The notes under the pieces: model-generated | Database searches by the model: none | What the model was told of the DNA's origin: nothing | Seen by the model: the letters and a program-made list of their open reading frames with translations, nothing else | In this document: piece after piece, positions 44,801-61,183 of the stretch | Numbering within the stretch: position 1 is the first letter of the stretch | Layout: each line of letters opens with the position of its first letter | Assembly: GCA_963736855.1 (NCBI GenBank) | Contig: CAVTQK010000021.1 | Location: 384,001 to 448,000 of the forward strand | Source: an uncultured delta proteobacterium | GTDB lineage: Bacteria; Desulfobacterota; Desulfobacteria; Desulfobacterales; UBA2156 | Length of the DNA: 64,000 nucleotides | Direction: 5' to 3' | Program-made: the position numbers and the translations under genes

Positions 44801-45086
44801 TGCGAAACGTCATGACTTCCGGATCGAAAGCATACGGAGGAATAAATTCCGGAAAGCATTTTTTGAAGATATCTTCCAGAAAAGCCCTGGGAAAAGGAAA
44901 AACCATGTTAGCGCAAATCCCGTTGATCCGGGCCAGGGCCATGCGGATCCAGCTCTCCATTCCCTTGCTTTGAACCACGACAAGATCTGGAGCAAGGGGT
45001 TCTTCAAGCGGTTGTGCCGCGATGTCCGCCAACCGCTCGGCAAGCACTTCCAGTCGATTACCGGTGATAACGGTCAGGTGCGCCAT
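41853..45086 (-). CDS. recC: Exodeoxyribonuclease V gamma subunit
   Basis: NPCREYW, HACHSPMREMEVL, TLLPMRSIP, DDKYLFLEALLSAR; recC-recB-recD order. Confidence 0.96.
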   Translation of the reverse strand: MAHLTVITGNRLEVLAERLADIAAQPLEEPLAPDLVVVQSKGMESWIRMALARINGICANMVFPFPRAFLEDIFKKCFPEFIPPYAFDPEVMTFRIMKHLKDRIGEPVFEPLSTYLGEGGDRLKRYGISRKISHLFDQYPIFRPDMVFSWESGQESDWQAVLWRDLMLESPNRHPAFWMRQLVEKIREGRIRLDIHFHRVCVFGISYLPPVYLQIMAEISRQVPVYLFLMNPCREYWSEIVSDYEAQRIRSAYPEPIGSGRDFHMERGNRLLSAWGVQGRQFFSTVNTLEASVEELFQEPDGNTLLSRIQRDILTLTDPETAAGVGRAVPGPVKSDRSIWIHACHSPMREMEVLRDLILDLFESEPEITPQDILVMTPEIETYAPFIQAVFGTQSEGNPRIPFRIADRGIGMEDEAVEAFLSILSLYNTRLGASQLLGILEYAPIRHRFNLSEAEVRTIERWIRETRIRWGVNSEDRNRWGIPGFMENTWEAGLDRLLLGYAMIEEGEKDVAGVLPYGAVSGEFVKTLEKFFTFFDTTVIYYNNYYSINNIDSWIALINQLLHDFMEMETSASQGIFAIEDAIHHLGWVGTQSGFEEKVDFPVVRSYLEERLKRKTEGHRFASEGMTFCTLLPMRSIPAQVICMVGMNDGAYPGQDHPLTFDKMAMKPRAGDRSRRRDDKYLFLEALLSARRRLFISYVGLNIQDNTVIPPSVLVTQLLDYIRDGYGIPETDLVVHHRLHPFSPAYFQNHPVLFSYSEDDFLAAKEGQRLSAAQSPFIEFPLDAPDEAFAHPDLEVLCRFFSNTSAFFLKNRLGVYLSEGEQPLLEREPFGLDGLETYRMAQDLVEAHLKGLLPENVHRIWHLEGRLPHGNVGLALFHRLNQDVAKFSRKVKELCGHEKPEEFSGEIHFDNLTLSGKVGSVCQGRLIRYRYVNTQGKDLLDSWIRHLFLAAVSTKKSGETLYFCKEALFRFHPVREASFLLESLLNLYREGLLQPVLLFPQSSFEYARQRFYKGRSREEALQGAKTKWTGNEFAAGDALDPYIERCFRGVDPIGTLFEQYAETVFAPLFAHLEKRKS

Positions 45087-45170
45087 GCGAAGGCCGGTAC
45101 AAATGGGTTCGACGGATTCCTGAAAAAGAAATTTCGAAGCTTAAAAAAAGAGGCGAAAATAACGGATCAT

Positions 45171-45836
45171 TCATGAAATCATGGCCACCACCTGGTTCAC
45201 AAGCTTTTCGATTCCTTCGGCAACTTCCTTGATTCCGGGTCCCAGCATGTATGCAGGAGTGGACACGATGCGGTTAGCCTTGTCAATGTGGATCTGATCC
45301 ACCATGCAGATCCGATGCACCCCGCCCATGGTTTCGATGGCGGCAGCAGTCCCAGGATCGTCTCCGATGGTGACTTCGGGTCTTCGTTCCGCCAGGGCTT
45401 TGGTTACGGTGGCGGGGGCAATACAGATAGCGCCTATGGGCTTTTTGGCTTTGGCCATCTCGGTTAAAAGCCTTTTGACTTCCGGATGAACCTTTGCATC
45501 CGGACCTTTCACGGCAAAATTACTTAAATTTTTAGCCGCACCGTATCCCCCCGGAATGATGAGGGCATCAAGATCGGAGGCTCTGACTTCCTTGATGTTT
45601 CGGATGTCCCCCCGGGCGATCCGGGCCGATTCAACCAGTACGTTTCGTCGTTCTTTTTCCTCTTCGCGGTTCAGATGATTGACGACATGGAACTGATCCA
45701 CATCCGGGGCTATGCAGACGCTCTTTGCGCCGGCGCGATCCAGCGTCAGCAGCGTAATGACTGCCTCGTGGATCTCCGTTCCATCAAAAACGCCGCACCC
45801 CGACAATAAGACGCCCACCCGTTTCTCCATAGCCAT
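45171..45836 (-). CDS. elbB: ElbB glyoxalase (DJ-1/PfpI superfamily)
   Basis: LSGCGVFDGTEIHE, ESARIARG, PGGYGAAKNL, CIAP, STPAYM. Confidence 0.94.
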   Translation of the reverse strand: MAMEKRVGVLLSGCGVFDGTEIHEAVITLLTLDRAGAKSVCIAPDVDQFHVVNHLNREEEKERRNVLVESARIARGDIRNIKEVRASDLDALIIPGGYGAAKNLSNFAVKGPDAKVHPEVKRLLTEMAKAKKPIGAICIAPATVTKALAERRPEVTIGDDPGTAAAIETMGGVHRICMVDQIHIDKANRIVSTPAYMLGPGIKEVAEGIEKLVNQVVAMIS

Positions 45837-45914
45837 GCTCCTTTTCTTTTCTTTCGGCCATCCCCAAAGCGAATGTGGTCGCCTAATGGAAAACTCCGAT
45901 TTGCTGGAAAAACA

Positions 45915-47399
45915 TTAGAACTGAAATCGTTTTTGAATAAAAACTTTTCTGCATGCTTCAACGACGCCGGGATCATACAAACACCCGCTATTTTTTGTGA
46001 TCTCTTCCAAAGCGGCATCAACACCCAGGGCCGGTCGATAAGGACGATGCGTAGCCATGGCTTCCACGGTGTCGGCCACCGCCATGATGCGGGCTTCCAG
46101 AAGTGTCTGGTCGCCGGTGAGGTTCCTGGGGTATCCGGACCCGTTCATCCTTTCGTGATGCTGGAAGATGATCTCGGCGATGGGCCAGGGAAACGCAATC
46201 CCGCTCATGATATCATAGCCGGATTGCGAGTGTATTTTAATAAGCTGAAATTCCACGTCGGATAATCGTCCCGGTTTGCTTAAGATTTCGGCGGGTACAG
46301 CGATCTTTCCGATGTCGTGTATCAGAGCGGCCATGAAGATCCCCTCCACCCGATTTTCGAGAAGGTTCATTTCCTGGGCGATGGCCCGGCTGAGCTTGGC
46401 CACTCTTTGCTGATGACCGGCGGTGTACGGGTCCCGACGTTCTACAATACCGGCCATGGCTTGAATGGTCCCCACCATGGCGTTTTGGAGCTTGTCGTAG
46501 CTTTGAGTGATGGCCTGCTCCATGCGTTTGCGTTCACTAATATCCCGAATGGAAGCCAGAAATGCCTTTTCTCCTTCCCATTCGGTTTCAACCACTTGCA
46601 TTTCGGCAATTACAGAAGACCGGTCTCCATTTTGGATTTCGATTTCTGTGGTCTGTCCCACCCGAATCGGATAAATAAAGGGATGATCGACCAAGTCCGC
46701 CTCGCGGCTGGCAAACAGATTTTGAGCTGCCGGATTGAAGAATTGTGCGATATTTTTTTGGTCCAGGATGACAATCCCATCCGAATTGTTGGTGATCATC
46801 TGTCGAAAGTTTTTCTCACTCGCCCTCAGGGCGATTTCCGCACGGGTACGGGCCTGAACCTCATCCGAAAGCTTCTTATTAGCTTCCAGAAGAGATAAGG
46901 TACGGGCCTTCACTCTCTCCTCCAGTTCTTGAAGGACGGATTGGTATTCCCGCTCCACCCGCCACTTTTCGCTCAGCGCAGAGGCAAACTGGAGGATTTC
47001 CTGGGGGTAAAATGGTTTCTGAAGATAGAGAAGCTTGTCCACGGGTAAAATGGAACGGGCAGTCCCCAGGATGTCCACCCGGGCTTGACCCGTCACCAGA
47101 ACGATGCCGACGTCCGGATCGATTTTTCGGATCTCCCGGGCGGTCCATATTCCGTCGGGTCCCGGAGGCATGTTGATATCGAGAAAGACCGCGGAAAAGG
47201 GACGGCCGGTTTGTTGGCTTTCTTGCACCAACGTTATGGCATGATCCCCTTGCCGGCTTTGGGCGACGTCGAAGTGCGGCATTTCCTGGGTATCGCCAAT
47301 TAGGTACTGGCTGGAAGAAAGGATCTGGTGATATAAATCGAGGATCGTCTCTTCATCGTCCACGGTGAGGATTCGAAAGGGCGGTTCCTTCTGAGGCAT
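45915..47399 (-). CDS. Response regulator with REC, PAS and HD-GYP phosphodiesterase domains
   Basis: VDDE...DINMP receiver; TAGHQQRV, IHDIGK, HHERMNGSGYP. Confidence 0.93.
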   Translation of the reverse strand: MPQKEPPFRILTVDDEETILDLYHQILSSSQYLIGDTQEMPHFDVAQSRQGDHAITLVQESQQTGRPFSAVFLDINMPPGPDGIWTAREIRKIDPDVGIVLVTGQARVDILGTARSILPVDKLLYLQKPFYPQEILQFASALSEKWRVEREYQSVLQELEERVKARTLSLLEANKKLSDEVQARTRAEIALRASEKNFRQMITNNSDGIVILDQKNIAQFFNPAAQNLFASREADLVDHPFIYPIRVGQTTEIEIQNGDRSSVIAEMQVVETEWEGEKAFLASIRDISERKRMEQAITQSYDKLQNAMVGTIQAMAGIVERRDPYTAGHQQRVAKLSRAIAQEMNLLENRVEGIFMAALIHDIGKIAVPAEILSKPGRLSDVEFQLIKIHSQSGYDIMSGIAFPWPIAEIIFQHHERMNGSGYPRNLTGDQTLLEARIMAVADTVEAMATHRPYRPALGVDAALEEITKNSGCLYDPGVVEACRKVFIQKRFQF

Positions 47400-47586
47400 G
47401 GCGGCACTCCTGTTCGGCTGATCTCAGATCCAATGTATTAAAATCCTTAACACATCCGGCCGGTATTTTCAAGGAGGTTTTAATAGATTGACCCCGCATG
47501 GTTGTCCCGGTTCTAATGAAAAGGAGAAGGTCCTTTTAAAAATCAAACCGAAACGAGGGGGGATGCCTGAAAAGAGAATATCGATT

Positions 47587-48244
47587 TTAGACCAACGCCT
47601 TGATTTTCTTAATGTCTTTAGACTTCCCCAGCATGATCAGTATGTCGCTGTCTTTTATGATAAAACTTGCCGGGGGTACCAGAATAAAATTTTCCGGTAC
47701 AAGCTCCTTGATGGCGATGATATGCACATTGTATTTGGCCCGCAGATTCAGCTCTTGTAAGACTTTTTCCGATGAACTCGCGCGGGGGGTCGACCTGAAC
47801 CAGATCGAATTCGTCCGCAAGCGGAATAAAATCCAGGATGTTGGGCCGGGAAAGACCCTTTGACACGCGCAGGGCCATGTCGCGTTCCGGATGGATGATT
47901 TCGGTAGCCCCGACGCGTCTTAAAATTTTACCGTGATCTTCGTCGAGTGCCTTGACGAGAATCTTTTTTACACCGATTTCCTGAAGATACAGACAGATCA
48001 GGATGCTGATGCTGATTTTCGTGCCGGTGGAAACAATCACCCCGTCCATATCCTCCAGTCCCATCGCTTTTAAAGCATCCTTGTCCGTGGCATTCATGAC
48101 AATGGCTTCGGTCGAGTAAGGATCGATGGCCTGAATTTTCCCTTTATCGATGTCAATGGCCACCACCTCATTCCCATCCTCAAACAACGCCTTGGCCGTA
48201 TGAAAACCAAAATTTCCGAGCCCTATGACTGCAAATCGTTTCAT
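47587..48244 (-). pseudogene. trkA: KtrA/TrkA-type RCK regulatory subunit with a +1 frameshift near 47757-47762
   Basis: GLGNFG Rossmann, HPERDMA; IGKSL continues as QELNLRAKYNVHIIAIK in the next frame. Confidence 0.88.
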
Positions 48245-48257
48245 TTCCGTTTTTCCT

Positions 48258-49628
48258 TCATCCGATCATGATATTCTCTTCCGAATACTCAATACCACTG
48301 GTCGCACTTGTTCCGACAATGATATACGAAAAGGTGAGAACCCCTACCCTGCCTAAAATCATCATCAGGATGATCCAGCACTTACCCCAAAGAGTTAATG
48401 CCGGGGTTATACCGATGGACAAACCTACGGTTCCAAAAGCCGATACGGTTTCAAAGAGATAAGCCAGGAAGGCGCCTTGTCGACGCGGGAACAGGTGATC
48501 ACCTCCTGTATCTCCGATCAAAAGCATGAACAATACGATGCTGATAATCCCAATGGAAAGGAGAAGGAGCGACATGCTTCGGGTCATCGTTTCCGCGGGG
48601 ATGCTTTTCTTAAACATGTTGACACGTCGCTTTCTTTTCACCCGACTCAAGATGAATGCCGTCAAAAGCGCCAAGGTTGTGGTCTTGACTCCGCCGCCGC
48701 AGGAACCCGGCGAGGCGCCGAAGAACATGAGAAAGATCATCATGGCCAAGGTGGCGTCCTTAAGCGAACCGATGTCCACCGTGTTGAATCCTGCGGTGCG
48801 ACACGTGATGGATTGAAACACCGGGACTAAGATTCGATGCGAAAGCGTTTGCGCATCCCCAAGGGCCTGCCGCTCCAAGAATGCAAATATCAAGGCTCCG
48901 GATACGATGAGGATTAAGGTCGTCAACAGCACGGTCTTGGTTTGAATCGAGAGCCTGCAGCGTTTGCGGTTCCGCAATCCGATCCAGCATTGCAGATCAT
49001 AGAGCACTGGGAACCCAACGCCGCCGACAACAATCAAGCTGCAAACGGTTGTGTTCAGGAGAAAATTGCCGCTGTAGTTCATCATACTGTCGGAAAACAG
49101 CGCAAAGCCGGCATTACAGAACGCGGAAACCGAGTGAAAGACCGCTGTATAGAGGGCAGGAAAAAAGGAGAATTCCTGACTCCAATGGAGGGTCAGGAAA
49201 ACAGCCCCGATGACCTCCGAACCGAGTGTAAAGAGGACAGTGCTCTTTACAAGACCGTAGATATCCTCGCGCGGGGTATGGGCGAACAGGTCCTGCATGG
49301 CCATGCGCTGACGGAAGGAAATATTTCGGCCGATCCATCTGAACAGGGCTACGGAAATGGTCATGACGCCGAGACCGCCGATTTGGATCATCGCGAGTAT
49401 CACACACTGTCCGAACACGGTGAAATAACTCCCTGTATCCACCACCGCCAGGCCTGTGACACATACGGCAGACGTGATCGTGAACAGGGCATCCACCCAA
49501 GGGATGTGACCGGTTATGCTGGAAGCCGGGAGTTTGAGCAGGATCGTCCCGACGGTAATGGCCAAGAGAAAACTGGCCAGGACGAGAGTTGCCGGGTGCA
49601 CCTTGAGTATACGAGTCCGAAGCGTCAT
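48258..49628 (-). CDS. KtrB-type potassium/sodium uptake membrane subunit
   Basis: Four pore loops SAVCVTG, SAFCNAG, CRTAG, SAFGTVG; GASPGSCGGGVK. Confidence 0.92.
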   Translation of the reverse strand: MTLRTRILKVHPATLVLASFLLAITVGTILLKLPASSITGHIPWVDALFTITSAVCVTGLAVVDTGSYFTVFGQCVILAMIQIGGLGVMTISVALFRWIGRNISFRQRMAMQDLFAHTPREDIYGLVKSTVLFTLGSEVIGAVFLTLHWSQEFSFFPALYTAVFHSVSAFCNAGFALFSDSMMNYSGNFLLNTTVCSLIVVGGVGFPVLYDLQCWIGLRNRKRCRLSIQTKTVLLTTLILIVSGALIFAFLERQALGDAQTLSHRILVPVFQSITCRTAGFNTVDIGSLKDATLAMMIFLMFFGASPGSCGGGVKTTTLALLTAFILSRVKRKRRVNMFKKSIPAETMTRSMSLLLLSIGIISIVLFMLLIGDTGGDHLFPRRQGAFLAYLFETVSAFGTVGLSIGITPALTLWGKCWIILMMILGRVGVLTFSYIIVGTSATSGIEYSEENIMIG

Positions 49629-50227
49629 GATTTACGCCTCGGGTTCAGGTAGTATTCACAGTGAAGATGGCTCTCTGTTTCACACAGTTCATGCAGTCTA
49701 TGACCGCCAAGGGCCATCCGATCCAGGTACGCCCCGCATACCGTCATTTCGTTTTGTGAATCGATCTTGCTGTAATTCAAGAAAGGGCATACCATATCAA
49801 GATGCTGTTCCAGTCGATCCCCCGGTCCCAAGCCTTCGATGATCTCCCGCACCAGGATTGAACCTAATTTGGCATCACCGATGTACCGGATGTAATCGAC
49901 TTGCGCTCGCCCCAGATCTTCAATCAGTTTGCGGTGCTTTGAATGGACAAGAGCCAGTACGGGACACTGTTTGGTATGGCTGTTTCGCTTCAGGGAGGCA
50001 CTCAGTTCCACGAGGGCTTCACGTTCTCTGATCGGCATCTGACCAAAAGAAACCACAATGATCCCGGGCTTCACATCGACAGCCTTTTCCAGACATTGGA
50101 TCGGACTGGAAACCCATTTTTCATCGGGTGATGACAGATTAGCGATGTTGCCTGTTGTGTCGCATAACAAGAATCGAAGGTTTCGCCCAGTATCCTCATC
50201 AATCGGTATAATCTTTTCTTTCATCAC
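49625..50227 (-). CDS. Hypothetical protein (degenerate receiver-like region plus C-terminal Cys4 motif)
   Basis: In the operon, overlapping the KtrB start; tail CPFL...CGAY...CETE..HCEYY. Confidence 0.7.
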   Translation of the reverse strand: MMKEKIIPIDEDTGRNLRFLLCDTTGNIANLSSPDEKWVSSPIQCLEKAVDVKPGIIVVSFGQMPIREREALVELSASLKRNSHTKQCPVLALVHSKHRKLIEDLGRAQVDYIRYIGDAKLGSILVREIIEGLGPGDRLEQHLDMVCPFLNYSKIDSQNEMTVCGAYLDRMALGGHRLHELCETESHLHCEYYLNPRRKS

Positions 50228-50239
50228 ATCAATTTCTCT

Positions 50240-51721
50240 TTAGTGTGTCCGCGCCAACATCAGTCGGCTGTCCCTGCCGAGCTTGAGCAGACTGACGATC
50301 ACCACGATGAACTCCAGCCGGCCTAGGAACATGGCGAGAGTTAATGCCCACATCGCGGGGCAGGGCATCCGCTGCGAGACAACCCCCACCGACAAACCGG
50401 AATTGGAGATGGCGGAGGCGAATTCGAAAAGAGAGTCCTTCAGGCTATAGCCGTAAACGCACATGACCATGACTCCCAGCAGATAGACCGCCGAATACAG
50501 AAAAACAAAGACGCCCACCTGGCGCACCCGGACATCATCGACAAAGACTCGCCCGCCGCTCTCCCAGATGGGATGTTCCATGATCACGGTCCGGGGCAGC
50601 AATGCGCGCGCGATCTCCCAGACGAACATCTTCCACAGCAGATAGACCCGGAACTGCTTGATCCCGCCGGCCGTGGAACAGGTTCCGCCGCCGATCAGCA
50701 TCAGCAGAATCAAGATGAAAATGCCGAGGTCGTTCCAGTTGTTGTAGCCCACCGTTACAAAACCCGTTGTGGTCAGGGCTGATATCGTCTCGAATACCGC
50801 AACACGGGTCCCTTTTGCAAGTGCGGGATAAATCGACTGACAGGTGAAGATGAACACAGCCATCGCGGACAGGGGGATGAGCACGGCCATGACGCGGACT
50901 TCGCCGTTGCGGGCGACAAACCTGAAGCGGCCGCGCAACAGCGACCATACGGTCACGAAGCTCATGTTGCCGATCAGCATCAGCGGAATCGACACCCCCT
51001 CGATGGCCGGGGAATCCCAATAGCCGATACTTTCCGCATGGGTTGAGAATCCTCCTGTGGATATGGCGGCAAAGGTATGGTTGACGGCATCGAAAAAGGA
51101 CATTCCAACCGCCCAATAGGCCAAGGTCCCGACGAGGGCGTACCCGGTGTAAATGATCAGCACCAGTCGAGCCGATTGACGCACCTGGGGAACCAGTTGA
51201 TCGCCTCTGCCCTCTGCGATCGATATGCCCGCTCCCGTTGGTCCGACGATGGCCGACATCATGATAACGGCAAGCCCTGCCCCTCCCGCCAGTTCGGTAA
51301 TGCTGCGCCAGAGCAGGATCATCGGGCCTGCCTTGGTCACATCCACCACCGAAAGCCCGGTGGTGGTCCATCCACTCACCGACTCAAAAACGCCCTGAGA
51401 AAACGTATGCCCCACGACAAACATGAAGGGCAGTGCCGAAAAAACGACGGCAACAATCCAACTGATGAGCACGATCACTCCGCCTTCCTGGATCGAGATG
51501 GGGTTATGGTAAGCGGGGCGAAACAGCTTCCACAACAAAAACCCCGTCAGGCCGAGACCTCCTGCGGGAAGGCCAAAAGCCCAGGCATGGACCGCCTCCT
51601 CTGGGTAAGCGAGGAGGATCAGGAGCGGCGTGAGCATCACGAGGCCGGAAAGAAGGAAGATCATGCCGACGGATGAGAGAATCGCGGCATAGCGCTGCCT
51701 GAGATATTCCTTTTCCCGCAA
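50240..51721 (-). CDS. trkH: TrkH family potassium uptake membrane subunit
   Basis: Pore loops SGWTTTG, ISTGGF, SALTTTG, SAISNSG; GGGTCSTAGGIK, GRLE. Confidence 0.92.
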   Translation of the reverse strand: MREKEYLRQRYAAILSSVGMIFLLSGLVMLTPLLILLAYPEEAVHAWAFGLPAGGLGLTGFLLWKLFRPAYHNPISIQEGGVIVLISWIVAVVFSALPFMFVVGHTFSQGVFESVSGWTTTGLSVVDVTKAGPMILLWRSITELAGGAGLAVIMMSAIVGPTGAGISIAEGRGDQLVPQVRQSARLVLIIYTGYALVGTLAYWAVGMSFFDAVNHTFAAISTGGFSTHAESIGYWDSPAIEGVSIPLMLIGNMSFVTVWSLLRGRFRFVARNGEVRVMAVLIPLSAMAVFIFTCQSIYPALAKGTRVAVFETISALTTTGFVTVGYNNWNDLGIFILILLMLIGGGTCSTAGGIKQFRVYLLWKMFVWEIARALLPRTVIMEHPIWESGGRVFVDDVRVRQVGVFVFLYSAVYLLGVMVMCVYGYSLKDSLFEFASAISNSGLSVGVVSQRMPCPAMWALTLAMFLGRLEFIVVIVSLLKLGRDSRLMLARTH

Positions 51722-51732
51722 GGCCGGCCCTC

Positions 51733-52395
51733 CTATTTGGATTCGCCCGTGAAGGCTTTAAGCACCGGGCCATGGTTCTCCGGCAGGGTGATCAGCACCA
51801 CCCGGTCACCCGATAGTAATTCATTGGCTCCGCGGGGAATGATCGGCTGATGGTCCCGGATAACGACCGCGACCAGGGCGTTCGTGGGGAGGTCGATGTC
51901 CTTCAAAAGCTTTCCTGCCACCGGGGAATGGGTGTCCAGTATGATCTCCGTCACGTTCACCCGGCCTTCACCGACCGGAAGGAGGTTGATGATCTGTTCG
52001 AGGGATGCCCGTTGTTCGATCAGACTGCTGACGATATGCGTGGTCGAAAAGGACGAAACACCCAGTTTGTCGAACACCTCGGCATTGTCAGGATCATTGG
52101 CCAGGGCCACGGCTCTTGGCACCCCGAATTTGAGAGATGCCAGTTGGCAGATCACCAGGTTGTCCTGGTCGTTGGGCGTGATGGCGAGCACCGCGTCCGC
52201 CCCCATGGCGCCGGCCTCCTCGAGAATTCCGGCATCGCTTCCGTCGCCGCAAACCACCACGGCGGAGAGTTGCCGGGCCAATCGGGTGCATTCCCCCCGG
52301 CTCCGGTTGATAATGACGACCTCATATCCCTTGGCGGTGAAGTTCCGGCACAGGAAAAAAAGCATCTTGCCGCCACCGACAATGAGCACTTTCAT
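51733..52395 (-). CDS. trkA: TrkA family protein (RCK_N plus RCK_C)
   Basis: MKVLIVGGGK, GDGSD, DQDNL, SPVAGK...IIPRG; ATG 52395 after GAGGAG. Confidence 0.88.
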   Translation of the reverse strand: MKVLIVGGGKMLFFLCRNFTAKGYEVVIINRSRGECTRLARQLSAVVVCGDGSDAGILEEAGAMGADAVLAITPNDQDNLVICQLASLKFGVPRAVALANDPDNAEVFDKLGVSSFSTTHIVSSLIEQRASLEQIINLLPVGEGRVNVTEIILDTHSPVAGKLLKDIDLPTNALVAVVIRDHQPIIPRGANELLSGDRVVLITLPENHGPVLKAFTGESK

Positions 52396-52828
52396 GGTGG
52401 CTCCTCTGTTCGGCGGCTCCTTTAGCAACAGCCAGCAGGAACATGTCTGCGGCCACGGATGTAGGACAAATGGTATCGATCCCCAATTGAGCATAGACTT
52501 CCTCCCTCTTGGGATCAAAAACCCTGGCCAGCACATGCGGGACATTGAAGATCTTCCGAGCCACCTGGGCGACCATCAGGTTGACATTATCCTCGTGCGT
52601 CGTGGCGAAAAAGACGTCGGCCTTTTTTATCTTGGCCTCTTTCAGCACCGCTATCTGCGTAGCGTCCCCTGCCACGCGAAAACCGCTGAAGTCCGGCGAC
52701 AGGTTATTGAAGGCGGCCTCATCCGTGTCGATCGCCACCACCGCATGGCCCATGCGGCTGAGTTGGTTGGCCAGATGAGAACCCAGGCGTCCGCACCCGA
52801 TGATCACGATATAGCGGTTATTCTTCAT
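52322..52828 (-). CDS. Single-domain TrkA (RCK_N only)
   Basis: IIGCGRLG, GDAT, DNVNL, ARVFDP, ICPT; C-terminal tail overlaps the next gene by 74 nt. Confidence 0.85.
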   Translation of the reverse strand: MKNNRYIVIIGCGRLGSHLANQLSRMGHAVVAIDTDEAAFNNLSPDFSGFRVAGDATQIAVLKEAKIKKADVFFATTHEDNVNLMVAQVARKIFNVPHVLARVFDPKREEVYAQLGIDTICPTSVAADMFLLAVAKGAAEQRSHHESAHCRWRQDAFFPVPELHRQGI

Positions 52829-53543
52829 GCTGATCCTTTTCGGCGCTTACGTCCTTTGAATCTGTATCCCTTTTATCCGGTCCGAAATCGATCCTGCCGA
52901 ATTTGTTCCAGGACGTGGTCCGTTCCAGGTTCGCCCAGGCCGGCTTGAAAGTGGGATCAATATCCAGTGCCGCCCGATAAAACTTCTGTGCCTCCAGCCA
53001 GTCACCCTTGATTTCAAGCAAAACCCCAAGAAGGTTGTATGCCTCCGGCTGGGCAGGGTCCGCGGCTATGGCCTTTCGTGCAGTTTCCCGGGCCGCGGAA
53101 AAACTGCGATCCGAGATGTGGCGTTTGCTGATCTCGATCAGCGAAAGGTAATCGACCGCGTTTTCTTCATCCAGGGCCTCACGCTCCAGCACCTGAGTCG
53201 CCAATTCTCGAATTTCACTGGGGCTAAAAGGCTTCTGAATGAAATCCGCCGCTCCGAGTTTCATGGCTTCCACAGCGAATTCGATGGTTCCGTGGGCGGT
53301 GATGATGATCACCCGCGTTTTTGGCCAGTCGTTCTTGATTTGACGCAGGACCTCCATTCCGTCTATCCCTGGCATCTTCAAATCCAGGAACACCAAACCG
53401 AACGAACCCTCGCGAAGCTTTTGCAGCGCTTCTTCGCCGTTTACGGCCGTCTGGACCGAAATTTCCAGCGGCTCCAATGATTGGGACATGGTCAGACGGA
53501 TGTTATTTTCGTCGTCAACGACCAGAATCGGTTTCTTTTCCAT
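52818..53543 (-). CDS. Response regulator with C-terminal TPR domain
   Basis: VVDDE, DLKMP, TAHG, KPF; tail PEAYNLLGVLLE...FYRAALDIDP. Confidence 0.88.
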   Translation of the reverse strand: MEKKPILVVDDENNIRLTMSQSLEPLEISVQTAVNGEEALQKLREGSFGLVFLDLKMPGIDGMEVLRQIKNDWPKTRVIIITAHGTIEFAVEAMKLGAADFIQKPFSPSEIRELATQVLEREALDEENAVDYLSLIEISKRHISDRSFSAARETARKAIAADPAQPEAYNLLGVLLEIKGDWLEAQKFYRAALDIDPTFKPAWANLERTTSWNKFGRIDFGPDKRDTDSKDVSAEKDQHEE

Positions 53544-53552
53544 GGGTTCCTC

Positions 53553-55386
53553 CTATTGGGCCACCGGCAGGGTGAAGGTAAAGGTGCTGCCCTTGCCTTG
53601 GGACGATTCCACCCAGATTGCACCACCATGAGCGCGCACTATTTCCTTGCAGATGGCGAGTCCCAGACCCGTGCCGCCCGCTTCTTGGCCTTTAACCTGT
53701 ACAAATTTCTGAAATATCTTGGATTGGTAATCAGAGGGAATTCCCGGCCCATCGTCACGCACGGACAAGTGGACGTGAGGCCCAATCCTTTGAGCCATGA
53801 GTTCTATATGGCCGCCCTTGCTCACATACCGTAGGGCATTCGAAATCAGGTTGCTCAATACCCATGTGATCTTGTTGGCATCAGCGCGAACTTTGGGCAA
53901 CTCGCCGGTGAAATCTGATGTAAGCGTAACTTCCTTCATGTCGATCTGGCTTTTGAAAACCGCTTTAACTTGGTCAAACAAGGTTGGGAACGAAACACTC
54001 TCGAACTCCAGCTCGATTCTACCCGCCTCGATTTTGGACAGGTCAAGCAAGTCATTGACTAGAGCCTTCATCCGGTGGACTTCCTCGTGAGCGGCTTGGA
54101 GGAGATCCCGGTCCTTTCCGGCAAGTCCAGGTGCGGCGTGTTCCAGGAGAAGATCCAGGCTCATACCCAGGCTGGTCAGCGGCGTACGTAGCTCATGAGA
54201 CGCGGCCATGACGAATTCACTCTTGAGTCGCTCCACTTCCTTCAGGCGGGTGACGTCCCGGAGCAAAAGCACGATGCCGGACAGGTTGCGATCCCTTCCT
54301 CGAATGGCCGTAACGGAAAAGAGATAGTGTCGGGACCTTTCTCCCTCCGGAAGAACGATGATCCGCTGTTCATCGGGGATATTGGATTGCACTCCCGTCT
54401 CGACGGTCTTTCGGATGAGATCGCAAACATTCGGATCAGGCAGAATGTCCATACAGAGTAATGTGGAGTTTTCATCAAATTCCAAATCCAGTAACCGGCG
54501 CGCTGATGGGTTAATGCCGGTCACCTTGAGTTGAGTATCGAAAACCACCAAGCCATCCTCGATGCTTGAAAGAATCGCCTCGCCCTTGTTCTTTTCGGAG
54601 ATGATCTGCTCGATATTCATCTCGTGATAACGACCGAGTTGGTTAGCCATTTGATTGAACTCTCCTGCCAGACGCCCCAGCTCGTCGCCGGTTTCCACGG
54701 GCACCTGGACTGCGTAGTCTCCCGATGAGATTTTTCTGGATGCCTCCATGAAACGCCGGATCGGTCGGACGATCCGCTCAGCGAGAAACAAGCTGAATAT
54801 CAGGGCTACAATCAGAGCTGATGCAGCCACGAGCACCGTTGACCAGATAGCACGTTTGGCAACGTTGCCGGCCTTAACGCTGGCAGCGTACATTGTCCCC
54901 TCGTTGAGATTGCGAAGGCCGATACACACCTCGCGCACCTTAGCGAAAAGGGGGTAAACCGTTTCCTGATAATAGGCGTGTGTGGAAAGCCGCTCTGGGA
55001 GTTTCATGCAAGTCGGTCAACTCCGAGAATTGTCGCCGATAGTTCGCATAGCCAGCCTCTATGGATTGGACAAGCTCCGCTTCGCCCTGAATTGTGATGT
55101 TGTCCTTGGCGCGGGCCAACCATTCCAGAAAGACCGCCTCGTTTTCCCGGAATTGAGCGGTTCCTTTTTTTGTGTCGCCCAGGAACATGAGCAGAATGCC
55201 GCTGTCTTGCCGTTCCAGCGCACCGACCATGTTCTCGGCGGCAAGAATGCTTCGGTAGTTTTCGCTTAAGATAGCATTAGTCGCCTTGCCCAGGGATACC
55301 AGATTCGTAACGGCCCACGCGACCACCATGCCCATGAGCGCAAAGGCTATGCCATGTCCAAGCAGGATTTTCTCTTTAAGTTTCAA
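53553..55386 (-). pseudogene. Sensor histidine kinase (periplasmic helical sensor, HAMP, PAS, HisKA, HATPase) with a +1 frameshift near 54990-55010
   Basis: ORF 54940-55386 carries TM1 and the sensor; ORF 53553-55007 carries TM2, HAMP, ASHELRTPL, GTGLGL. Confidence 0.88.
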
Positions 55387-55427
55387 CTATCTTCATCCTT
55401 TTGCCATCATCCCTGCATGAGGATTTA

Positions 55428-55443
55428 TGCATTTCAGATGCCA
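55428..55443 (-). promoter_or_regulatory. Sigma54 (-24/-12) promoter
   Basis: TGGCATCTGAAATGCA: GG-N10-GC spacing, about 40 nt upstream of the kinase start. Confidence 0.8.
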
Positions 55444-55517
55444 ATATTGTAATTCTTTAATTTTATTGATTTAATTAATATTCAGGAGGGATAGAAACAA
55501 AAGACTTTAGATGGGAA

Positions 55518-55555
55518 CCTGCATTTTGCAGGAATGACAGCTTGCAGGTTGCAAG
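55518..55555. promoter_or_regulatory. Tandem palindromic enhancer (UAS) sites
   Basis: CCTGCA-TTT-TGCAGG (55518-55532) and CTTGCA-GGT-TGCAAG (55541-55555), centres 23 bp apart. Confidence 0.7.
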
Positions 55556-55559
55556 ATCA

Positions 55560-56885
55560 TCAATCCAATTGGAATCTTTTTCTTTTACGCCACAACGTCG
55601 CCGGATCGATTCCCAGAATTTTTGCCGCTTCTTCGAGAGAATCCGCATGTAAAATCACATTTTGGATGTGATTTTTTTCCATATCGGCCAAACTTTCAAG
55701 CGCTGGAGAGGAGCCGGAGGAAGGTTTGAAATTCGCAATATTCGGCGTAAGGTCATCGATGGAAAGCGCGGTTTCACGGGCCATGATGACACCGCGTTCT
55801 ATCACGTTGATCAGCTCCCGAACATTGCCCGGCCAGGGATAGTTCTGAAGCCGTTGCAGGGCATCGGGTGAAATATGCTGCATCGCTTTGGCATTCATTC
55901 GGGCGGAGCGCTTCAGATAATATTCGGTCAGGAGCTCAATATCTTCTGGTCTCTCCCTGAGAGGCGGCAGGAAGAGTTCCAATACGTTGATTCGGAAAAA
56001 AAGATCTTCCCGGAAAGCGCCGTCACGCACGAGTTCCTCTAAATCCTTATTCGTGGCTGCGATCAAGCGCACATCGACATGCTGAGTGACGGGATCACCC
56101 AGGCGTTCGAACTCCCGGTGCTGTAAAAAACGCAAAAGCTTCCCTTGAATCGGAGGAGGTATTTCCGATACTTCGTCTAAGAAAACGGTTCCGCCTTCCG
56201 CCAGTTTGAGTTTACCCACTTTATCGCGAAGGGCACCGGTGAAGGCACCTTTGACATGCCCGAACAAATCGCTTTCCAAAAAACTTTCCTGCAGGGCTGC
56301 GCAGTCCACGGTGACAAAAGGGTACTCGGCACGTGGGCTCCAATCATGAATCAGGCGTGCCAGCAGTCCTTTTCCAGTCCCGCTTTCCCCGGATATCAGG
56401 ATGATCGCGTTGGATTCGGCTGCCTGCCGCGCAGTCTGGAGGATCCTTCTCATTTTGCGGTTACGCGTCAGAATGCCGCCTTCGGAAAAGATTCCTTTAA
56501 GCGTTGCTACTTCCGTTTCCAGCGTCTGAAAGCGTTTAAGCCTCTCCAAAACAAGATCGAGCTGACCCGGTACAAAAGGTTTAGGCAGATAATCGAAGGC
56601 GCCCATTTTGACGGCACTGACGGCGGTTTCGATGCTGGCGTAAGCCGTGATCATCAAAACATGCGATTGATTGCCGCTGGTGATGATTTCTTTTAAGATT
56701 TCCAGTCCGTCCCGGTCCGGCAGTTTCATATCCAATAATACGAGATCCGGCGTTTCATACCGAAAAATCTCCAAACCTTTGACCCCGGAAGATGCGGTGA
56801 AAACTTCAAGGCCCCGGTCTTCGAGATAGGCTTCCAAAGTGGTCAGGATGTTTCGATCATCATCAATGATCAATGCTTTTTTCAT
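55560..56885 (-). CDS. Sigma54-dependent NtrC/AlgB-family response regulator
   Basis: IIDDD receiver, GESGTGKG, GAFTGA, FLDEV, WPGNVREL, Fis-type HTH; start reset to ATG 56885. Confidence 0.95.
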   Translation of the reverse strand: MKKALIIDDDRNILTTLEAYLEDRGLEVFTASSGVKGLEIFRYETPDLVLLDMKLPDRDGLEILKEIITSGNQSHVLMITAYASIETAVSAVKMGAFDYLPKPFVPGQLDLVLERLKRFQTLETEVATLKGIFSEGGILTRNRKMRRILQTARQAAESNAIILISGESGTGKGLLARLIHDWSPRAEYPFVTVDCAALQESFLESDLFGHVKGAFTGALRDKVGKLKLAEGGTVFLDEVSEIPPPIQGKLLRFLQHREFERLGDPVTQHVDVRLIAATNKDLEELVRDGAFREDLFFRINVLELFLPPLRERPEDIELLTEYYLKRSARMNAKAMQHISPDALQRLQNYPWPGNVRELINVIERGVIMARETALSIDDLTPNIANFKPSSGSSPALESLADMEKNHIQNVILHADSLEEAAKILGIDPATLWRKRKRFQLD

Positions 56886-58452
56886 AATCATCGTCCTCTT
56901 CGGCGGGTATCCAGAAAACGAATGTCGTGCCTTTACCGGGTGTACTTTCCACCCGGATATCACCCCTGTGCTGCTCGATGACGTCTTTGACGATAGCCAG
57001 ACCCAATCCGATGGTTCCGCTTTTTCCGCGTTCCGAGAACTGGGAAAAGCGGTCAAAAATATGCGGGAGATAGTGCGCCTCAATCCCGCTCCCCGTATCG
57101 CTGCATTTGAAATAGAACCGTGATCCGCTTTTATGAACATGAAACCGGATGTGTCCGCCGCGTTCGGTGTATCGCAGCGCGTTGCCGACTAGATTCGTGA
57201 TTACCCACGGGAAACGAAAAGAGTCGATGGTTAGCTTTGGCAAGCCTTCTGCAATTTCGATCTGAAGCTTGACCCCTTTTTGCTCCGCCTGCTTCATCAG
57301 CGGGGCTAGGCATTCCTCTATGACGATAGCGACATCGAGGGTTTCTTTGTGACGCGGCCGAGCCATGGTTTCGAGTCTGGAAATATCTACCAATTCATTT
57401 ACCAGGCTTGACAGCCTCATACACTCTTCCTGAGCTGTTTTCAGCAATTTTCCCCGCTTTTCCCCTCCAAGGTGCTCCCCTCTTTCATGGAGCAATCCGA
57501 TGCTCATTGAAAGTGATGTCATCGGAGTCTTCAGTTGGTGGGAAATATCGGCGATAAATCTTCCCTTGGCCTCCTCGATTCGGCGAACCTTTTCTTTTTC
57601 GACGGCAATGATATCGTCACGGTAACGGTCATAGAGTTCGAGGCGATTAAACAATTGATTGAATGAAGAAGTCAAAAATCCGATTTCATCTTTTGACCGC
57701 GGGTTGATTTTGGGATATACCCCGCTTCCTTCTCTGGCATCGGAAAGGCTTCGCGCTAAAGTCATCATTGGCTTGGCGATGCGATAGGACAAGAAGGAAC
57801 TCAGGATCAAAATAACTCCGATGACAACGGTGAACAGGATCACTGCATCTCTCTGGGCACGACTGGCTAAAAGTCGGGTCTGGTATACGGCGCGCTCCAT
57901 GGCCTCTTCGTTGATGTTCGCCAAATCCTCAAAACGAGATACCATGTCAGCCGTCAGTGCCAAAAATTCAGCGAAACGTGCATTTTCCCACAAGCTGACA
58001 TCCGCTTTAGACAAAACATGGATAACCTCTTCATAGCCGATATAGCCTCTGATTAAATGATCGATAACCTCCTGTTCTCCGGATTCGGTGACGTTGTCCC
58101 GACAAATCATCAAAGGATCGGATAGATTTGTCAATAGTTTGGCCGGCACCAAAGCGGGGCTTTGCTTAAGCGACATCTGTTCCAGGAGCTGATTACGAGT
58201 TCCTTCAAGCATTTTACGGGCCTGCTGGGCGGCCCGGATGGATTTGTAGTTCTTGGACAGGATCTGTTCCGCACTTTCTCCAAGGGAGATTAAATACTGA
58301 TGATTGAGCAACGCTGCAATCAAAAGGGCAAAGGTCGGCAGCAGGCTGACAACAAAGATCTTGAGCCATATCGGATACCGAACCGGTCTTTTTTCCTTTT
58401 CGAGTTCTTTTTTCTCTACCATAACCAACGCTGTATGATCATCTTCGTTCAA
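56863..58452 (-). CDS. Sensor histidine kinase (periplasmic helical sensor, HAMP, HisKA, HATPase)
   Basis: Two TM segments, ISHQLKTPM H-box, NLVGNALRY, GLGLAIV; start uncertain. Confidence 0.92.
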   Translation of the reverse strand: MNEDDHTALVMVEKKELEKEKRPVRYPIWLKIFVVSLLPTFALLIAALLNHQYLISLGESAEQILSKNYKSIRAAQQARKMLEGTRNQLLEQMSLKQSPALVPAKLLTNLSDPLMICRDNVTESGEQEVIDHLIRGYIGYEEVIHVLSKADVSLWENARFAEFLALTADMVSRFEDLANINEEAMERAVYQTRLLASRAQRDAVILFTVVIGVILILSSFLSYRIAKPMMTLARSLSDAREGSGVYPKINPRSKDEIGFLTSSFNQLFNRLELYDRYRDDIIAVEKEKVRRIEEAKGRFIADISHQLKTPMTSLSMSIGLLHERGEHLGGEKRGKLLKTAQEECMRLSSLVNELVDISRLETMARPRHKETLDVAIVIEECLAPLMKQAEQKGVKLQIEIAEGLPKLTIDSFRFPWVITNLVGNALRYTERGGHIRFHVHKSGSRFYFKCSDTGSGIEAHYLPHIFDRFSQFSERGKSGTIGLGLAIVKDVIEQHRGDIRVESTPGKGTTFVFWIPAEEDDDYEKSIDH

Positions 58453-58656
58453 TCAAATTTCTTTTTCCTATCTATTCGTTACATTGCATATTTGGATAAC
58501 ACAGTTCCACAATGACATATACCTATTTACCCTCTTGCAATAAAACATTTCAACCGATAAAGATAGCGGTGATGTTAAGCGAGGGGATTCCATGCAACAC
58601 AGACCCGAAACAAGAAAGCAGAGATAGGTTTATCTTACTGAAATTTATAAAAATTA

Positions 58657-58754
58657 TGGCGGAAGTGCATGGGAATCGAACCCACCCGAGACGGTTTTAG
58701 CGCCTCACACCGGATTTGAAGTCCGGGAGCCCCACCAGTGAGCTGTGCACTTCC
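58657..58754 (-). tRNA. selC: tRNA-Sec (UCA)
   Basis: 8-bp acceptor GGAAGTGC/GCACTTCC, anticodon arm CCGGA-CTTCAAA-TCCGG, long variable arm, TTCGATT T-loop, GCCA end. Confidence 0.96.
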
Positions 58755-58767
58755 GTGAATATCTAAA

Positions 58768-58797
58768 TCTATACTATGTACTTCTTTTGCCTGTCAA
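58768..58797 (-). promoter_or_regulatory. Candidate sigma70 promoter of selC
   Basis: TTGACA-N18-TATAGA just upstream of the tRNA 5' end. Confidence 0.45.
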
Positions 58798-58821
58798 GGA
58801 AGATGAAAAAAGGAGTTGACC

Positions 58822-59973
58822 ATGATTGATGCTGAACGTCTAAAAAAGATATTTCTTTCCTTGGTGAAAACCAGCAGCGTCAGTAAAAAAGAAGGCGCTT
58901 TTTCCCGAATGCTCCAGGGGCGTTTGGAAAACTTGGGGGCTTTCACCTGGATAGATGATGCCGGGAAAATGACGGGAAGCGATACCGGAAACCTCATCGC
59001 AAAGTTCTCCGGAAATCGAAGCGTGCCGCCTTTGCTCTTGAGCGCCCATATGGATACGGTTCAACCGGGAGAGGATATTCATCCCGTTTATGAAGATGGT
59101 GTTTTCAAAAGCAATGGAAGGACCATCCTGGGAGCCGACGACAAGAGTGCCATCGCCATCATCCTGGAATCAATCCGCGTAATCCAGGAAAACGGGCTTC
59201 CCTGCGGTCCGCTGGATTTGGTCTTCACCGTATGCGAGGAAGATGCCCTTGCCGGCTCAAAATGTCTCGATCTTGACCGCATCTCTGCCAAGTGCGGGTA
59301 TGTTCTGGATGCCACCGATACTGAAGGTATCGTCACACGTGCACCTGCAGCCAACCGCCTGACCTTCGATGTTTTTGGGAAGGAAGCTCATGCCGGAGCG
59401 GCGCCGGAGAAGGGGATCAATGCGATTCATCTCGCCTGCCGGGCGATAGCATCTTTGGAGCTAGGGCGGATCGATCGTGAAACAACCTGTAACATCGGTG
59501 TAATTCATGGAGGATTCGCTACCAATATTGTTCCGAATCGGGTTACGGTCATCGGTGAGGCCCGCAGCCATGACGAAGCCAAGCTGGAACGAGTGACCGA
59601 GACCATCGTTGAGGCATTCAGGGAGTCTGTGGAACATCATGTCGGTCCGGCATCCGGGAACGGCCTTCCCCGGTTGGAAAGCCGAGTGGAACGATCTTTT
59701 TCCAGAACATGCGTCCCGGAAGATCACCCGGTAGTTTTACTGGCCCGGAACGCTGCCTCAGCGATGGGTCGAAAAATGGTTTGCAAGTCCTCCGGCGGGG
59801 GGTCGGATGCCAACATCTTTTTCGAAAAAGGGATCGTGACCGGAGTCCTTGGTTCCGGGATGCGGGATATGCACACGGTCTTGGAATGGATCCGTTTAGA
59901 TGACATGGTCCGCACGTCCGAACTTCTGGTGAAAATACTCACCCTCCATGCCAACACGACGTTCAGTTCCTGA
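58822..59973 (+). CDS. M20 family metallopeptidase (peptidase T-like)
   Basis: SAHMDTV, LGADDK, CEE, AHAG..PEKG, GGGSDAN, MHT; ATG after AGGAG. Confidence 0.92.
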   Translation: MIDAERLKKIFLSLVKTSSVSKKEGAFSRMLQGRLENLGAFTWIDDAGKMTGSDTGNLIAKFSGNRSVPPLLLSAHMDTVQPGEDIHPVYEDGVFKSNGRTILGADDKSAIAIILESIRVIQENGLPCGPLDLVFTVCEEDALAGSKCLDLDRISAKCGYVLDATDTEGIVTRAPAANRLTFDVFGKEAHAGAAPEKGINAIHLACRAIASLELGRIDRETTCNIGVIHGGFATNIVPNRVTVIGEARSHDEAKLERVTETIVEAFRESVEHHVGPASGNGLPRLESRVERSFSRTCVPEDHPVVLLARNAASAMGRKMVCKSSGGGSDANIFFEKGIVTGVLGSGMRDMHTVLEWIRLDDMVRTSELLVKILTLHANTTFSS

Positions 59974-59989
59974 TAGAGAGGTCCCGGCC

Positions 59990-61183
59990 TTGTTCGCCTA
60001 TCTCAACTGCTTTTCCGGCCTGAGCGGAGACATGATGCTGGGAGCGCTCATCGATCTGGGCGTTCCCGTGGGATGGCTCGACGATCAGTTGAAAAGCTTT
60101 TCAATTTCCGGGTTTACCTTGCACACAAGCCCGACTTTTCGTCATGGGATTCGGGCGGTCAAGCTCGATGTGGAAGTACACGACAATTCATCGATTCGGC
60201 GCTTTGCCGATATCCGCGCCCTCATCGACCGAAGCCCGATGTCTCCGGGCGTCAAGGCATCGAGTCTCAAAATTTTCGATCGAATCGCCGACGCTGAATC
60301 AGTCCTCCATGGTTGTCCCAAAGAGCAGTTGCATTTCCATGAGATCGGATCCGTTGATTCACTGGTGGATGTGGTGGGAACGTGCCTGGGACTGGAATAC
60401 CTCGGGGTTCAAGAAATCTCCGCCTCCCGAATCCCTCTCGGAAACGGTTGGGTCGACTGCGCCCACGGAAGGCTTCCCTTACCGGCGCCTGCCACTCTTG
60501 AAATACTTACGGGTGTGCCGATCTATCAAACGGACATCCCCTATGAACTGACGACACCCACGGGAGCTGCGATCCTTGTCTCCCTTTCAGATCATTTCGG
60601 TCCGATGCCGGAGATGACCGTGGATAAGATTGGGTACGGCGCCGGAACACGGGATCTGGAAGCGGTTCCAAACCTTTTGAGGGTGGCTCTGGGCCGACGA
60701 TCATCTCCGGTGCAACGGATCGAAGACCGGGTCATTGTGGCCGAATGCACCATCGACGACATGAATCCGGAGCTCTTCGGGCACCTCATGGAACGGCTGT
60801 TCCAGGATGGTGCTCTGGACGTCTACTGGATTCCGGTATTTATGAAAAAGAATCGACCCGGTACATGGGTTCAGGTTCTCTGCCGGGAGGACCGGCGGGA
60901 AGCGGTCTTGGAACGCATTCTGACGGAAACCACATCCATCGGGGTTCGATATTCAGAGGTCCGGCGGTGGACTCTGCCTCGGGAGCCTGTCATCATCGAA
61001 ACGGAATTCGGATCTCTTTTGGCCAAGCGGATCAGGTCGTTGAATGGAAAATGGCGCGTTGTACCGGAATATGACGCCTGTCGGAAAATCGCTGCGGAAA
61101 GAGGCATTCCTTTGCACATCGTCTATGAGGCGGTGTCGGCGGCCGGGAGACGACTGACGGATCCGGATTCGGTCAACCCATAA
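59990..61183 (+). CDS. larC: Nickel-pincer cofactor biosynthesis protein LarC
   Basis: CFSGLSGDMMLGAL, HFHEIG, PAPATLEIL, TPTGAA, IDDMNPE, MKKNRPG, PEYD; TTG start after GAGAGG. Confidence 0.93.
   Translation: MFAYLNCFSGLSGDMMLGALIDLGVPVGWLDDQLKSFSISGFTLHTSPTFRHGIRAVKLDVEVHDNSSIRRFADIRALIDRSPMSPGVKASSLKIFDRIADAESVLHGCPKEQLHFHEIGSVDSLVDVVGTCLGLEYLGVQEISASRIPLGNGWVDCAHGRLPLPAPATLEILTGVPIYQTDIPYELTTPTGAAILVSLSDHFGPMPEMTVDKIGYGAGTRDLEAVPNLLRVALGRRSSPVQRIEDRVIVAECTIDDMNPELFGHLMERLFQDGALDVYWIPVFMKKNRPGTWVQVLCREDRREAVLERILTETTSIGVRYSEVRRWTLPREPVIIETEFGSLLAKRIRSLNGKWRVVPEYDACRKIAAERGIPLHIVYEAVSAAGRRLTDPDSVNP

Follow-up and report, generated by a model that had tools for sequence, protein, structure and literature searches.

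How is potassium (K+) uptake controlled at a locus where two histidine kinases and two response regulators are packed together with both a Trk and a Ktr transporter? Inducible K+ uptake is tied to Kdp. The locus in question occupies positions 47587 to 58452, on the minus strand, of a stretch of 64,000 nucleotides (here called the window) from an uncultured delta proteobacterium of the Desulfobacterales lineage UBA2156 (GenBank assembly GCA_963736855.1, contig CAVTQK010000021.1, positions 384,001 to 448,000). An initial annotation had described it as a two-tier phosphorelay cascade in front of a dual Trk plus Ktr operon. Here, it is read as a regulated K+ uptake operon that is run by a kdp-associated sigma54 two-component family of deltaproteobacteria and built of two modules, a reading to which we give a probability of about 0.66. 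Module A would comprise kinase 1, the activator, the promoter, a pseudo-receiver, KtrB and KtrA, and module B kinase 2, a REC-TPR regulator, a two-subunit TrkA and TrkH. The annotated gene list and its order on the minus strand were borne out by open reading frame (ORF) and Pfam checks:

56863..58452, minus strand: kinase 1, with two transmembrane (TM) helices, a four-helix periplasmic sensor, a weak HAMP, HisKA and HATPase
55560..56885, minus strand: sigma54 activator, REC-AAA+-HTH, whose start overlaps the kinase 1 stop
55555-55541 and 55532-55518, minus strand: two enhancer palindromes, consensus CTTGCA-N3-TGCAAG
55428..55443, minus strand: predicted sigma54 -24/-12 promoter in the activator/kinase 2 spacer
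53553..55386, minus strand: kinase 2, with a sensor of the kinase 1 family, then HAMP, PAS, HisKA and HATPase
52818..53543, minus strand: REC-TPR response regulator without a DNA-binding domain
52322..52828, minus strand: RCK_N-only TrkA subunit, TM1088A type
51733..52395, minus strand: RCK_N+C TrkA subunit, TM1088B type (3L4B chain C, E 5e-43)
50240..51721, minus strand: TrkH, with four filter glycines
49625..50227, minus strand: Cys4 protein, receiver fold plus Cys-rich C-terminal domain
48258..49628, minus strand: KtrB, with four filter glycines; chimeric, crossover near 48800
47587..48244, minus strand: KtrA, 218 amino acids (aa) in relatives; frameshifted in this assembly

Gaps between the ten genes range from -74 to +13 bases, except for the 173 bases between activator and kinase 2. 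Every gene label is backed by Pfam except those of Cys4 and of the N-terminal ORF of kinase 2, neither of which has a match, and all four filter-motif glycines are kept in TrkH and in KtrB, as had been stated. The term phosphorelay did not survive: a Pfam scan of the locus proteins shows no Hpt domain and no kinase-borne receiver, and the locus holds two ordinary kinase-regulator pairs, not a multistep phosphorelay.

The evidence that carries the reading begins at the promoter. Asp52, Walker A and GAFTGA are all kept in the activator, the genome has rpoN, and the annotated enhancers and sigma54 promoter are indeed found in the spacer, where the palindromes lie upstream of the promoter, 113 and 90 bp from its GG. 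Across relatives, CTTGCA-N3-TGCAAG (with at most two mismatches) follows 54 of 59 related activator genes, compared with 1.6% of shuffles, and an enhancer with a sigma54 promoter 70-130 bases further on occurs in 44 of the 59 regions downstream of these genes and in 0 of 1770 shuffles, a geometry beyond chance and in support of a K+ uptake operon that depends on sigma54 and has a conserved enhancer. Because the consensus was read from the tested loci themselves, which are kin and whose 59 members include the window and one duplicate, this test demonstrates conservation, not function. The conserved enhancer precedes Trk/Ktr operons and kdp operons alike, and a genome-wide scan for the enhancer-promoter geometry returned this site and one weaker match only. 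Autoregulation of kinase 1 through the same enhancer was considered and rejected, as no enhancer-promoter pair lies upstream of kinase 1.

Gene content, sites and family links are observed directly, and the cue, the phosphotransfer pairing and each binding event are inferred. Judging by gene overlap and co-occurrence, kinase 1 very probably controls phosphorylation of the activator, and the activator, given the sites and their geometry, would with similar probability bind both palindromes and open the sigma54 promoter, so inducing kinase 2, REC-TPR and both transporters. Basal read-through into these genes is probable, because no terminator-like site was found after the activator gene.

The regulators are not separate from Kdp control and belong to a kdp-associated family. 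The activator groups with kdp-linked activators (33 rows, Shimodaira-Hasegawa-like approximate likelihood ratio test (SH-aLRT) 100), apart from the 10 other sigma54 activators of the genome. This clade includes the activator of a metagenomic kdp operon (L189) that has both published DVU3334 sites and the same gene set as the DVU3334-DVU3336 system, and whose kinase carries the window's sensor (hhalign 96%, E 1.3e-9). In the available portions of PMC3333781 and PMC4641369, D. vulgaris DVU3334 is the sigma54 regulator of kdpFABC, with a kinase split into DVU3336 and DVU3335. Both systems have a sigma54 activator, 6-3-6 palindromes upstream of a sigma54 promoter, a separate kinase and K+ uptake as output, and, through L189 as proxy, sensor family and activator clade in common; by eye, the window's first palindrome matches 8 of 12 half-site positions of the first DVU3334 site, as printed in the available text. 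Unlike DVU3334-DVU3336, the locus has no KdpD-N/Usp protein and no kdpFABC, its output is Trk plus Ktr, it has two kinases, and REC-TPR and a pseudo-receiver are added. Overall, the locus would work like a split kdp system but falls outside that group in lacking the KdpD-N protein and in its target. Among relatives, one locus (L030:18860-20542) encodes a stand-alone KdpD-N protein fused to a PTS EIIA domain, and in many other kdp loci, too, the KdpD-N protein has this length of about 560 aa.

Both transporters have characterized counterparts. Top PDB matches of the RCK_N-only subunit (searched with its L018 ortholog) and of the 220-residue TrkA are TM1088A and TM1088B, and Thermotoga maritima TM1088A/TM1088B-TM1089 is presented in the available text of PMC4380455 as a two-subunit Trk ring (PDB 3L4B, 2G1U). 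Here, as there, an RCK_N-only subunit, an RCK_N+C subunit and TrkH occur together; unlike there, they are placed behind a kinase, REC-TPR and a sigma54 promoter, regulators of which the accessible part of PMC4380455 makes no mention. That part calls Trk the chief constitutive transporter of K+ in E. coli. KtrB matches known KtrB at E 3e-84, and KtrA (as the G005 ortholog) reaches E 2e-46. As in KtrAB of Bacillus subtilis and Vibrio alginolyticus, a KtrB with four filter glycines is paired with KtrA; unlike in those systems, a coupled pseudo-receiver gene precedes, control is by a predicted two-component sigma54 system, and ktrA is frameshifted here.

This TrkH and this KtrB are the only TrkH-family genes in the genome (G000, 100% complete), which yielded no gene for KdpA, Kup, KdpD-N or a KimA-like protein; the KdpD N-terminal domain PF02702 had 0 matches there, and the control matched 6 of 14. 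All five other genomes of the genus (G001-G005) have a full-length trkA-trkH pair. Here, the housekeeping trkAH is a decayed remnant (G000:C17:101495-101873), with about 35 and 39 codons left, an early stop and about 2.5 kb missing. A diadenylate-cyclase-family gene lies at G000:C17:182875-183228, and cyclic di-AMP could act on the RCK_C lobes.

Two further features bear on how the operon was assembled:

58657..58754, minus strand: tRNA-Sec; the K+ locus starts immediately beyond the tRNA 3' end
48800..55530: segment foreign by comparison with the sister genome G005, running from kinase 2 to the 5' part of ktrB

At the same place, G005 has module A alone. Its flanks are 85-99% identical to ours per comparison interval, with one interval at the tRNA at 73%; between about 55530 and 48800 identity is 64-67% or there is no alignment. 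The foreign segment has its edges between the two enhancers (55530) and at the third filter motif of ktrB (48800). Kinase 2 and REC-TPR are closest to L016 (84-85% nucleotide identity), and ktrB compared with that of L021 reaches 80% in its 5' part and 75% in its 3' part, the values for G005 ktrB being 71-73% in both parts. We read the window rather than G005 as the recombinant. In G001, G003 and G004, tRNA-Sec stands 0.3-0.9 kb from an HD-GYP gene with no K+ locus between, so the whole K+ locus is variable at this site among members of the genus. By these sequence comparisons, the operon is a recent mosaic, in which a locus of kinase 1, activator and Ktr received, by recombination, a block of kinase 2, REC-TPR and Trk; module B would have entered a module A already in place, and the loss of the housekeeping trkAH presumably came after. 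An integrase-type island is not claimed: inspection by eye showed no duplicated tRNA end at the opposite edge of the locus, and tRNA-Sec and kinase 1 have no long ORF between them. An RNA-family scan of positions 44000-62000 found tRNA-Sec only and no further known RNA family. A REC-containing HD-GYP-like gene (window 45915-47399, minus strand) follows ktrA after 188 bases; being resident in the genus where there is no K+ locus, it probably stands outside the system.

What the kinases sense is the next step of the question. Kinases 1 and 2 carry the same periplasmic sensor family between two TM helices, and the motifs that the annotation had quoted for them are present at 58263 and 55272. A domain scan found no PAS in kinase 1; the H-boxes read SHQLKTP (kinase 1) and SHELRTP (kinase 2). 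The sensor was modelled as a four-helix bundle (model confidence score (pLDDT) 86; L016 ortholog used), and six of its polar positions are conserved at 99-100% in the 150 best representatives. Its Pfam matches are weak, 4HB_MCP_1 in 10 of 18 members and KinB_sensor (PF16767) in 4 of 18, the latter below cut-off (best E 0.021; PDB 4LLC and 3KKB at E 0.4-0.5). A PDB sequence search with the sensor profile gave no significant match, and Foldseek with the model gave nothing at E 0.001 or better. Pseudomonas aeruginosa KinB is an all-helical periplasmic sensor kinase paired with the sigma54 activator AlgB, and serves alginate, not K+; the pairing of a helical periplasmic sensor kinase with a sigma54 activator is common to KinB-AlgB and the present locus. 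Two-component control of K+ uptake is likewise shared with E. coli KdpDE. Unlike KdpDE, however, the kinases here have two TM helices and a four-helix periplasmic domain, with no KdpD or GAF domain found in them, the regulators are REC-AAA+-HTH and REC-TPR rather than an OmpR-type KdpE, and the transporters differ. With a kdp-type sigma54 regulator on Trk/Ktr and no KdpD domain, the kinases must sense alone or through a transporter.

The sensor profile matches 68 of 401 genomes of a phylum sample, and the loci fetched comprise 60 with the best matches and 16 with weaker ones. K+ uptake genes lie near the sensor in 54 of the 60 best-scoring loci (Kdp 35, TrkH 11, KimA-like 8, Kup 7, KtrB 5), and four of the six loci without them are short stretches reaching contig ends; one copy of the KimA-like protein (L097) was checked against PDB KimA (E 1.6e-7). 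In the kinase tree, kinase 1 has its own clade (13 rows, SH-aLRT 100), kinase 2 falls into a clade with support of 95, and a weakly supported group (83) holds mostly Kdp-linked kinases. In five loci (L136, L138, L142, L143, L146), a sensor-domain protein without a kinase domain, about 254 aa long (348 aa in L136), is encoded immediately ahead of trkH, a hint of a complex of sensor and transporter. In G026, the first gene behind the promoter encodes an extra 4HB_MCP protein of 212 aa (L010:5733-6371).

The four-helix domain of kinase 1 would sense a periplasmic cue, for which low K+ is the most likely candidate, at somewhat better than even odds. A cue other than K+, namely Na+, pH, osmolarity or transporter activity sensed in a kinase-transporter complex, appears rather unlikely, even with the sensor-HAMP protein adjoining trkH, the absence of a KdpD-type domain and a weak resemblance of the sensor model to Tar/NarQ-type ligand-binding bundles (best E 0.04) in its favor. 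The family stands beside five types of K+ transporter, which a direct K+ sensor explains simply, and the near-invariance of the six polar positions also speaks against a cue of another kind.

The second regulator and the Cys4 protein raise the question of output. REC-TPR keeps Asp54, Thr82 and Lys104, with its phospho-acceptor intact, and has no DNA-binding domain, and a search with its C-terminal part returned 693 clusters. The Cys4 family comprises 289 clusters, none of the 120 listed carrying a Pfam domain, and occurs in 10 of 401 phylum genomes. Its model (pLDDT 87) has a receiver fold (Z 11.5, root-mean-square deviation 2.5, 101 aligned) without a phospho-acceptor Asp at the end of strand 3, where positions 59-62 are mostly Arg, Phe, Gly and Lys (122 rows). 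The C-terminal domain carries Cys146/163/181/189 and His186, the four Cys being conserved in 121-122 of 122 rows, and would bind metal. On the strength of the model, Cys4 is a predicted pseudo-receiver with a Cys-rich tail rather than a phosphorylatable response regulator. It mostly precedes ktrB.

REC-TPR and the pseudo-receiver might merely tune the kinases, as a phosphate sink or a DHp-binding brake, so that the system sets transcription only. REC-TPR follows kinase 2 more closely than any transporter (42 of the 49 loci described below), its helix-1 residues NIRLT are similar to NIRKT and NILTT of the activators, and the Asp-less Cys4 persists in loci where no KtrB was found (L019, L025, L127, L150). 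However, a pure sink would have no need of a TPR part as well conserved as this one, and where kinase 2-REC-TPR pairs have no activator in the stretch there is no obvious transcription to tune. We regard tuning alone as unlikely and return to REC-TPR as a phosphorylated partner: kinase 2 very probably phosphorylates it, and its output would be non-transcriptional.

The wiring of the two modules was compared across relatives. REC-TPR matches occur in 6 of 60 relatives and in 0 of 5 within the genus. From the 80 loci of the REC-TPR search, 31 were counted (L016-L046; near full-length, high-scoring matches); eight further loci were inspected, among them the kdp locus L061, which carries this sensor, and L056 and L070, whose scanned proteins are regulators of the OmpR type. 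The resulting set of 49 REC-TPR loci, from which L096 was excluded as a duplicate of L019, was mostly found by REC-TPR similarity, which favors Trk neighbors. Kinase 2 is labelled in 42 of these, a TM1088A-like gene in 37, the activator in 32, KtrB in 22, Cys4 in 21 and kinase 1 in 9. The commonest form is activator, promoter, kinase 2, REC-TPR and Trk, with no upstream kinase. Kinase 1, activator, Cys4 and KtrAB stand alone in G005 and L139. The full ten-gene order, the conservation of which the annotation had proposed to check, recurs in four other loci: L020 (Desulfosarcina widdelii PP31), L027 (Desulfamplus magnetovallimortis), L044 and L010, the last with one extra ORF. Among the REC-TPR loci, an APC-family transporter distantly similar to KimA accompanies the regulator in L097, L098, L104, L112 and L128. 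The cassette also occurs in records titled Aminicenantes, Clostridia and Bacteroidota (L024, L026, L041, L045), with REC-TPR identity of 80-82% in L024, L026 and L041, which suggests cross-phylum transfer or mis-binning.

A two-tier cascade was not borne out as the core design. Its strict form, in which kinase 1 acts on transcription and kinase 2 only on REC-TPR, which in turn gates TrkA or KtrA rings, would fit the TM1088A-like genes, as these are usually the next, overlapping gene after REC-TPR, and the loci with kinase 2 and REC-TPR but no nearby activator (L011, L013, L104, L105, L128), which suit a non-transcriptional output. Joint transcriptional and post-translational control is, moreover, known for Kdp, where KdpB is the substrate of a serine kinase, the N-terminal domain of KdpD (PMC11018627, in its available portions). 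Against this, kinase 1 is present in just the nine loci above, and the search bias toward Trk neighbors lessens the weight of the TM1088A association. In the single-contig genomes G060 and G073, kinase 2 is the sole kinase of the sensor family, beside activator and REC-TPR, and so probably serves both regulators there. Eight of the 49 loci have no Trk/Ktr gene in the stretch examined, seven of them carrying KimA-like, Kup or Kdp instead, which makes a target limited to RCK rings doubtful. The strict cascade is thus improbable, and in most relatives kinase 2 is alone with both regulators, two tiers being the minority wiring. In the preferred two-module reading, kinase 2 may also act on the activator, at about even odds, as a feedback rather than a one-way cascade, and the target of REC-TPR would not be specific to RCK rings.

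The integrity of the operon in this strain has also to be considered. In kinase 2, about 610 aa in relatives, a single additional base near 54982 breaks the frame and leaves two ORFs, 55386-54940 and 55007-53553; the annotation was right that the gene is present and missed the break. KtrA is likewise present, yet the annotated end at 47587 is the stop of another frame: one extra base near 47761, also overlooked, shifts the frame and removes the C-terminal lobe, so that the ORF ends at 47618. The RCK_N gene misses 4 bases near 52400 and is hence 22 codons long (146 aa in relatives). These lesions could mean that the system is decaying, with kinase 2 and KtrA as true pseudogenes and Trk largely constitutive through read-through. 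Three indels within 11 kb exceed the background, the loss of housekeeping trkAH implies a need for steady uptake, and the missing terminator-like site would allow it. On the other side, contigs from runs X1, X2 and X4 (about 98% identical) lack the extra base at 54982 and have the 4 bases, the extra base in ktrA is absent from X1 and X2 contigs (ktrA is also intact in G005), and enhancers and promoter are intact. Of 109 ORFs with an ortholog in G005, 5 (one of them ktrA) carry a frameshift in this assembly, in a count that left out 13 in-frame-stop flags. Single-base breaks, such as assembly indels would produce, are also seen in another kinase, a protease, an HrpA-like helicase and recB. Assembly error is likelier than strain-specific decay, and decay of the system has poor odds. 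The break in the recB-like gene (window 38295-41850, minus strand) lies near 40960-40994; the gene is a single ORF of about 1180 aa in G001, G004 and G005.

The boldest view is improbable: the four-helix domain would sense periplasmic K+ and have no relation to KdpD, its kinases would plug into Kdp, Trk, Ktr, Kup and KimA-like control, and phosphorylated REC-TPR, perhaps with the metal-binding pseudo-receiver, would switch transporters directly; if true, REC-TPR would take the role of the KdpD N-terminal serine kinase, and two-component phosphorylation would gate Trk/Ktr channels.

Several observations weigh against the two-module reading itself. In kinase 1, as in most kdp-linked kinases, Gln follows the phospho-His (57523-57543, minus strand), where kinase 2 has Glu, and Gln in place of an acidic residue may lower kinase activity. 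Only 4 of the 16 weaker-scoring sensor loci have K+ genes, so the sensor fold is used for other signals as well. Elsewhere in the genome there are two genes for MthK-type channels and one Kef-like gene, all labelled from their sequences. The kinase and activator trees are quick trees without bootstrap, and the two breaks in the locus exceed the background (4 of 108 other ORFs; 0.30 expected; P about 0.04), so that part of the system in this strain may be broken by the kinase 2 and KtrA frameshifts. Finally, the recognition helix of the L189 activator is not the same as the DNA-binding sequence given for DVU3334 in the available part of PMC4641369, which makes L189 only a proxy for DVU3334.

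A literature search, in which few subscription journals were covered, found no description of the operon or of REC-TPR with Trk, in keeping with the annotation's statement that no characterisation was known (PMC3543383 and PMC8534201, as far as available, served as context only). The parts, namely the Trk pair, KtrAB and kdp-type regulators, are known, and their combination would be a re-use of them. It bears on how split Kdp systems sense K+, the KdpD N-terminal domain being a serine kinase for KdpB, and offers three testable objects: a conserved periplasmic sensor family, the REC-TPR regulator and an unannotated pseudo-receiver family. The locus also shows how such an operon is rebuilt, one recombination edge lying at a shared enhancer and the other within a filter motif.

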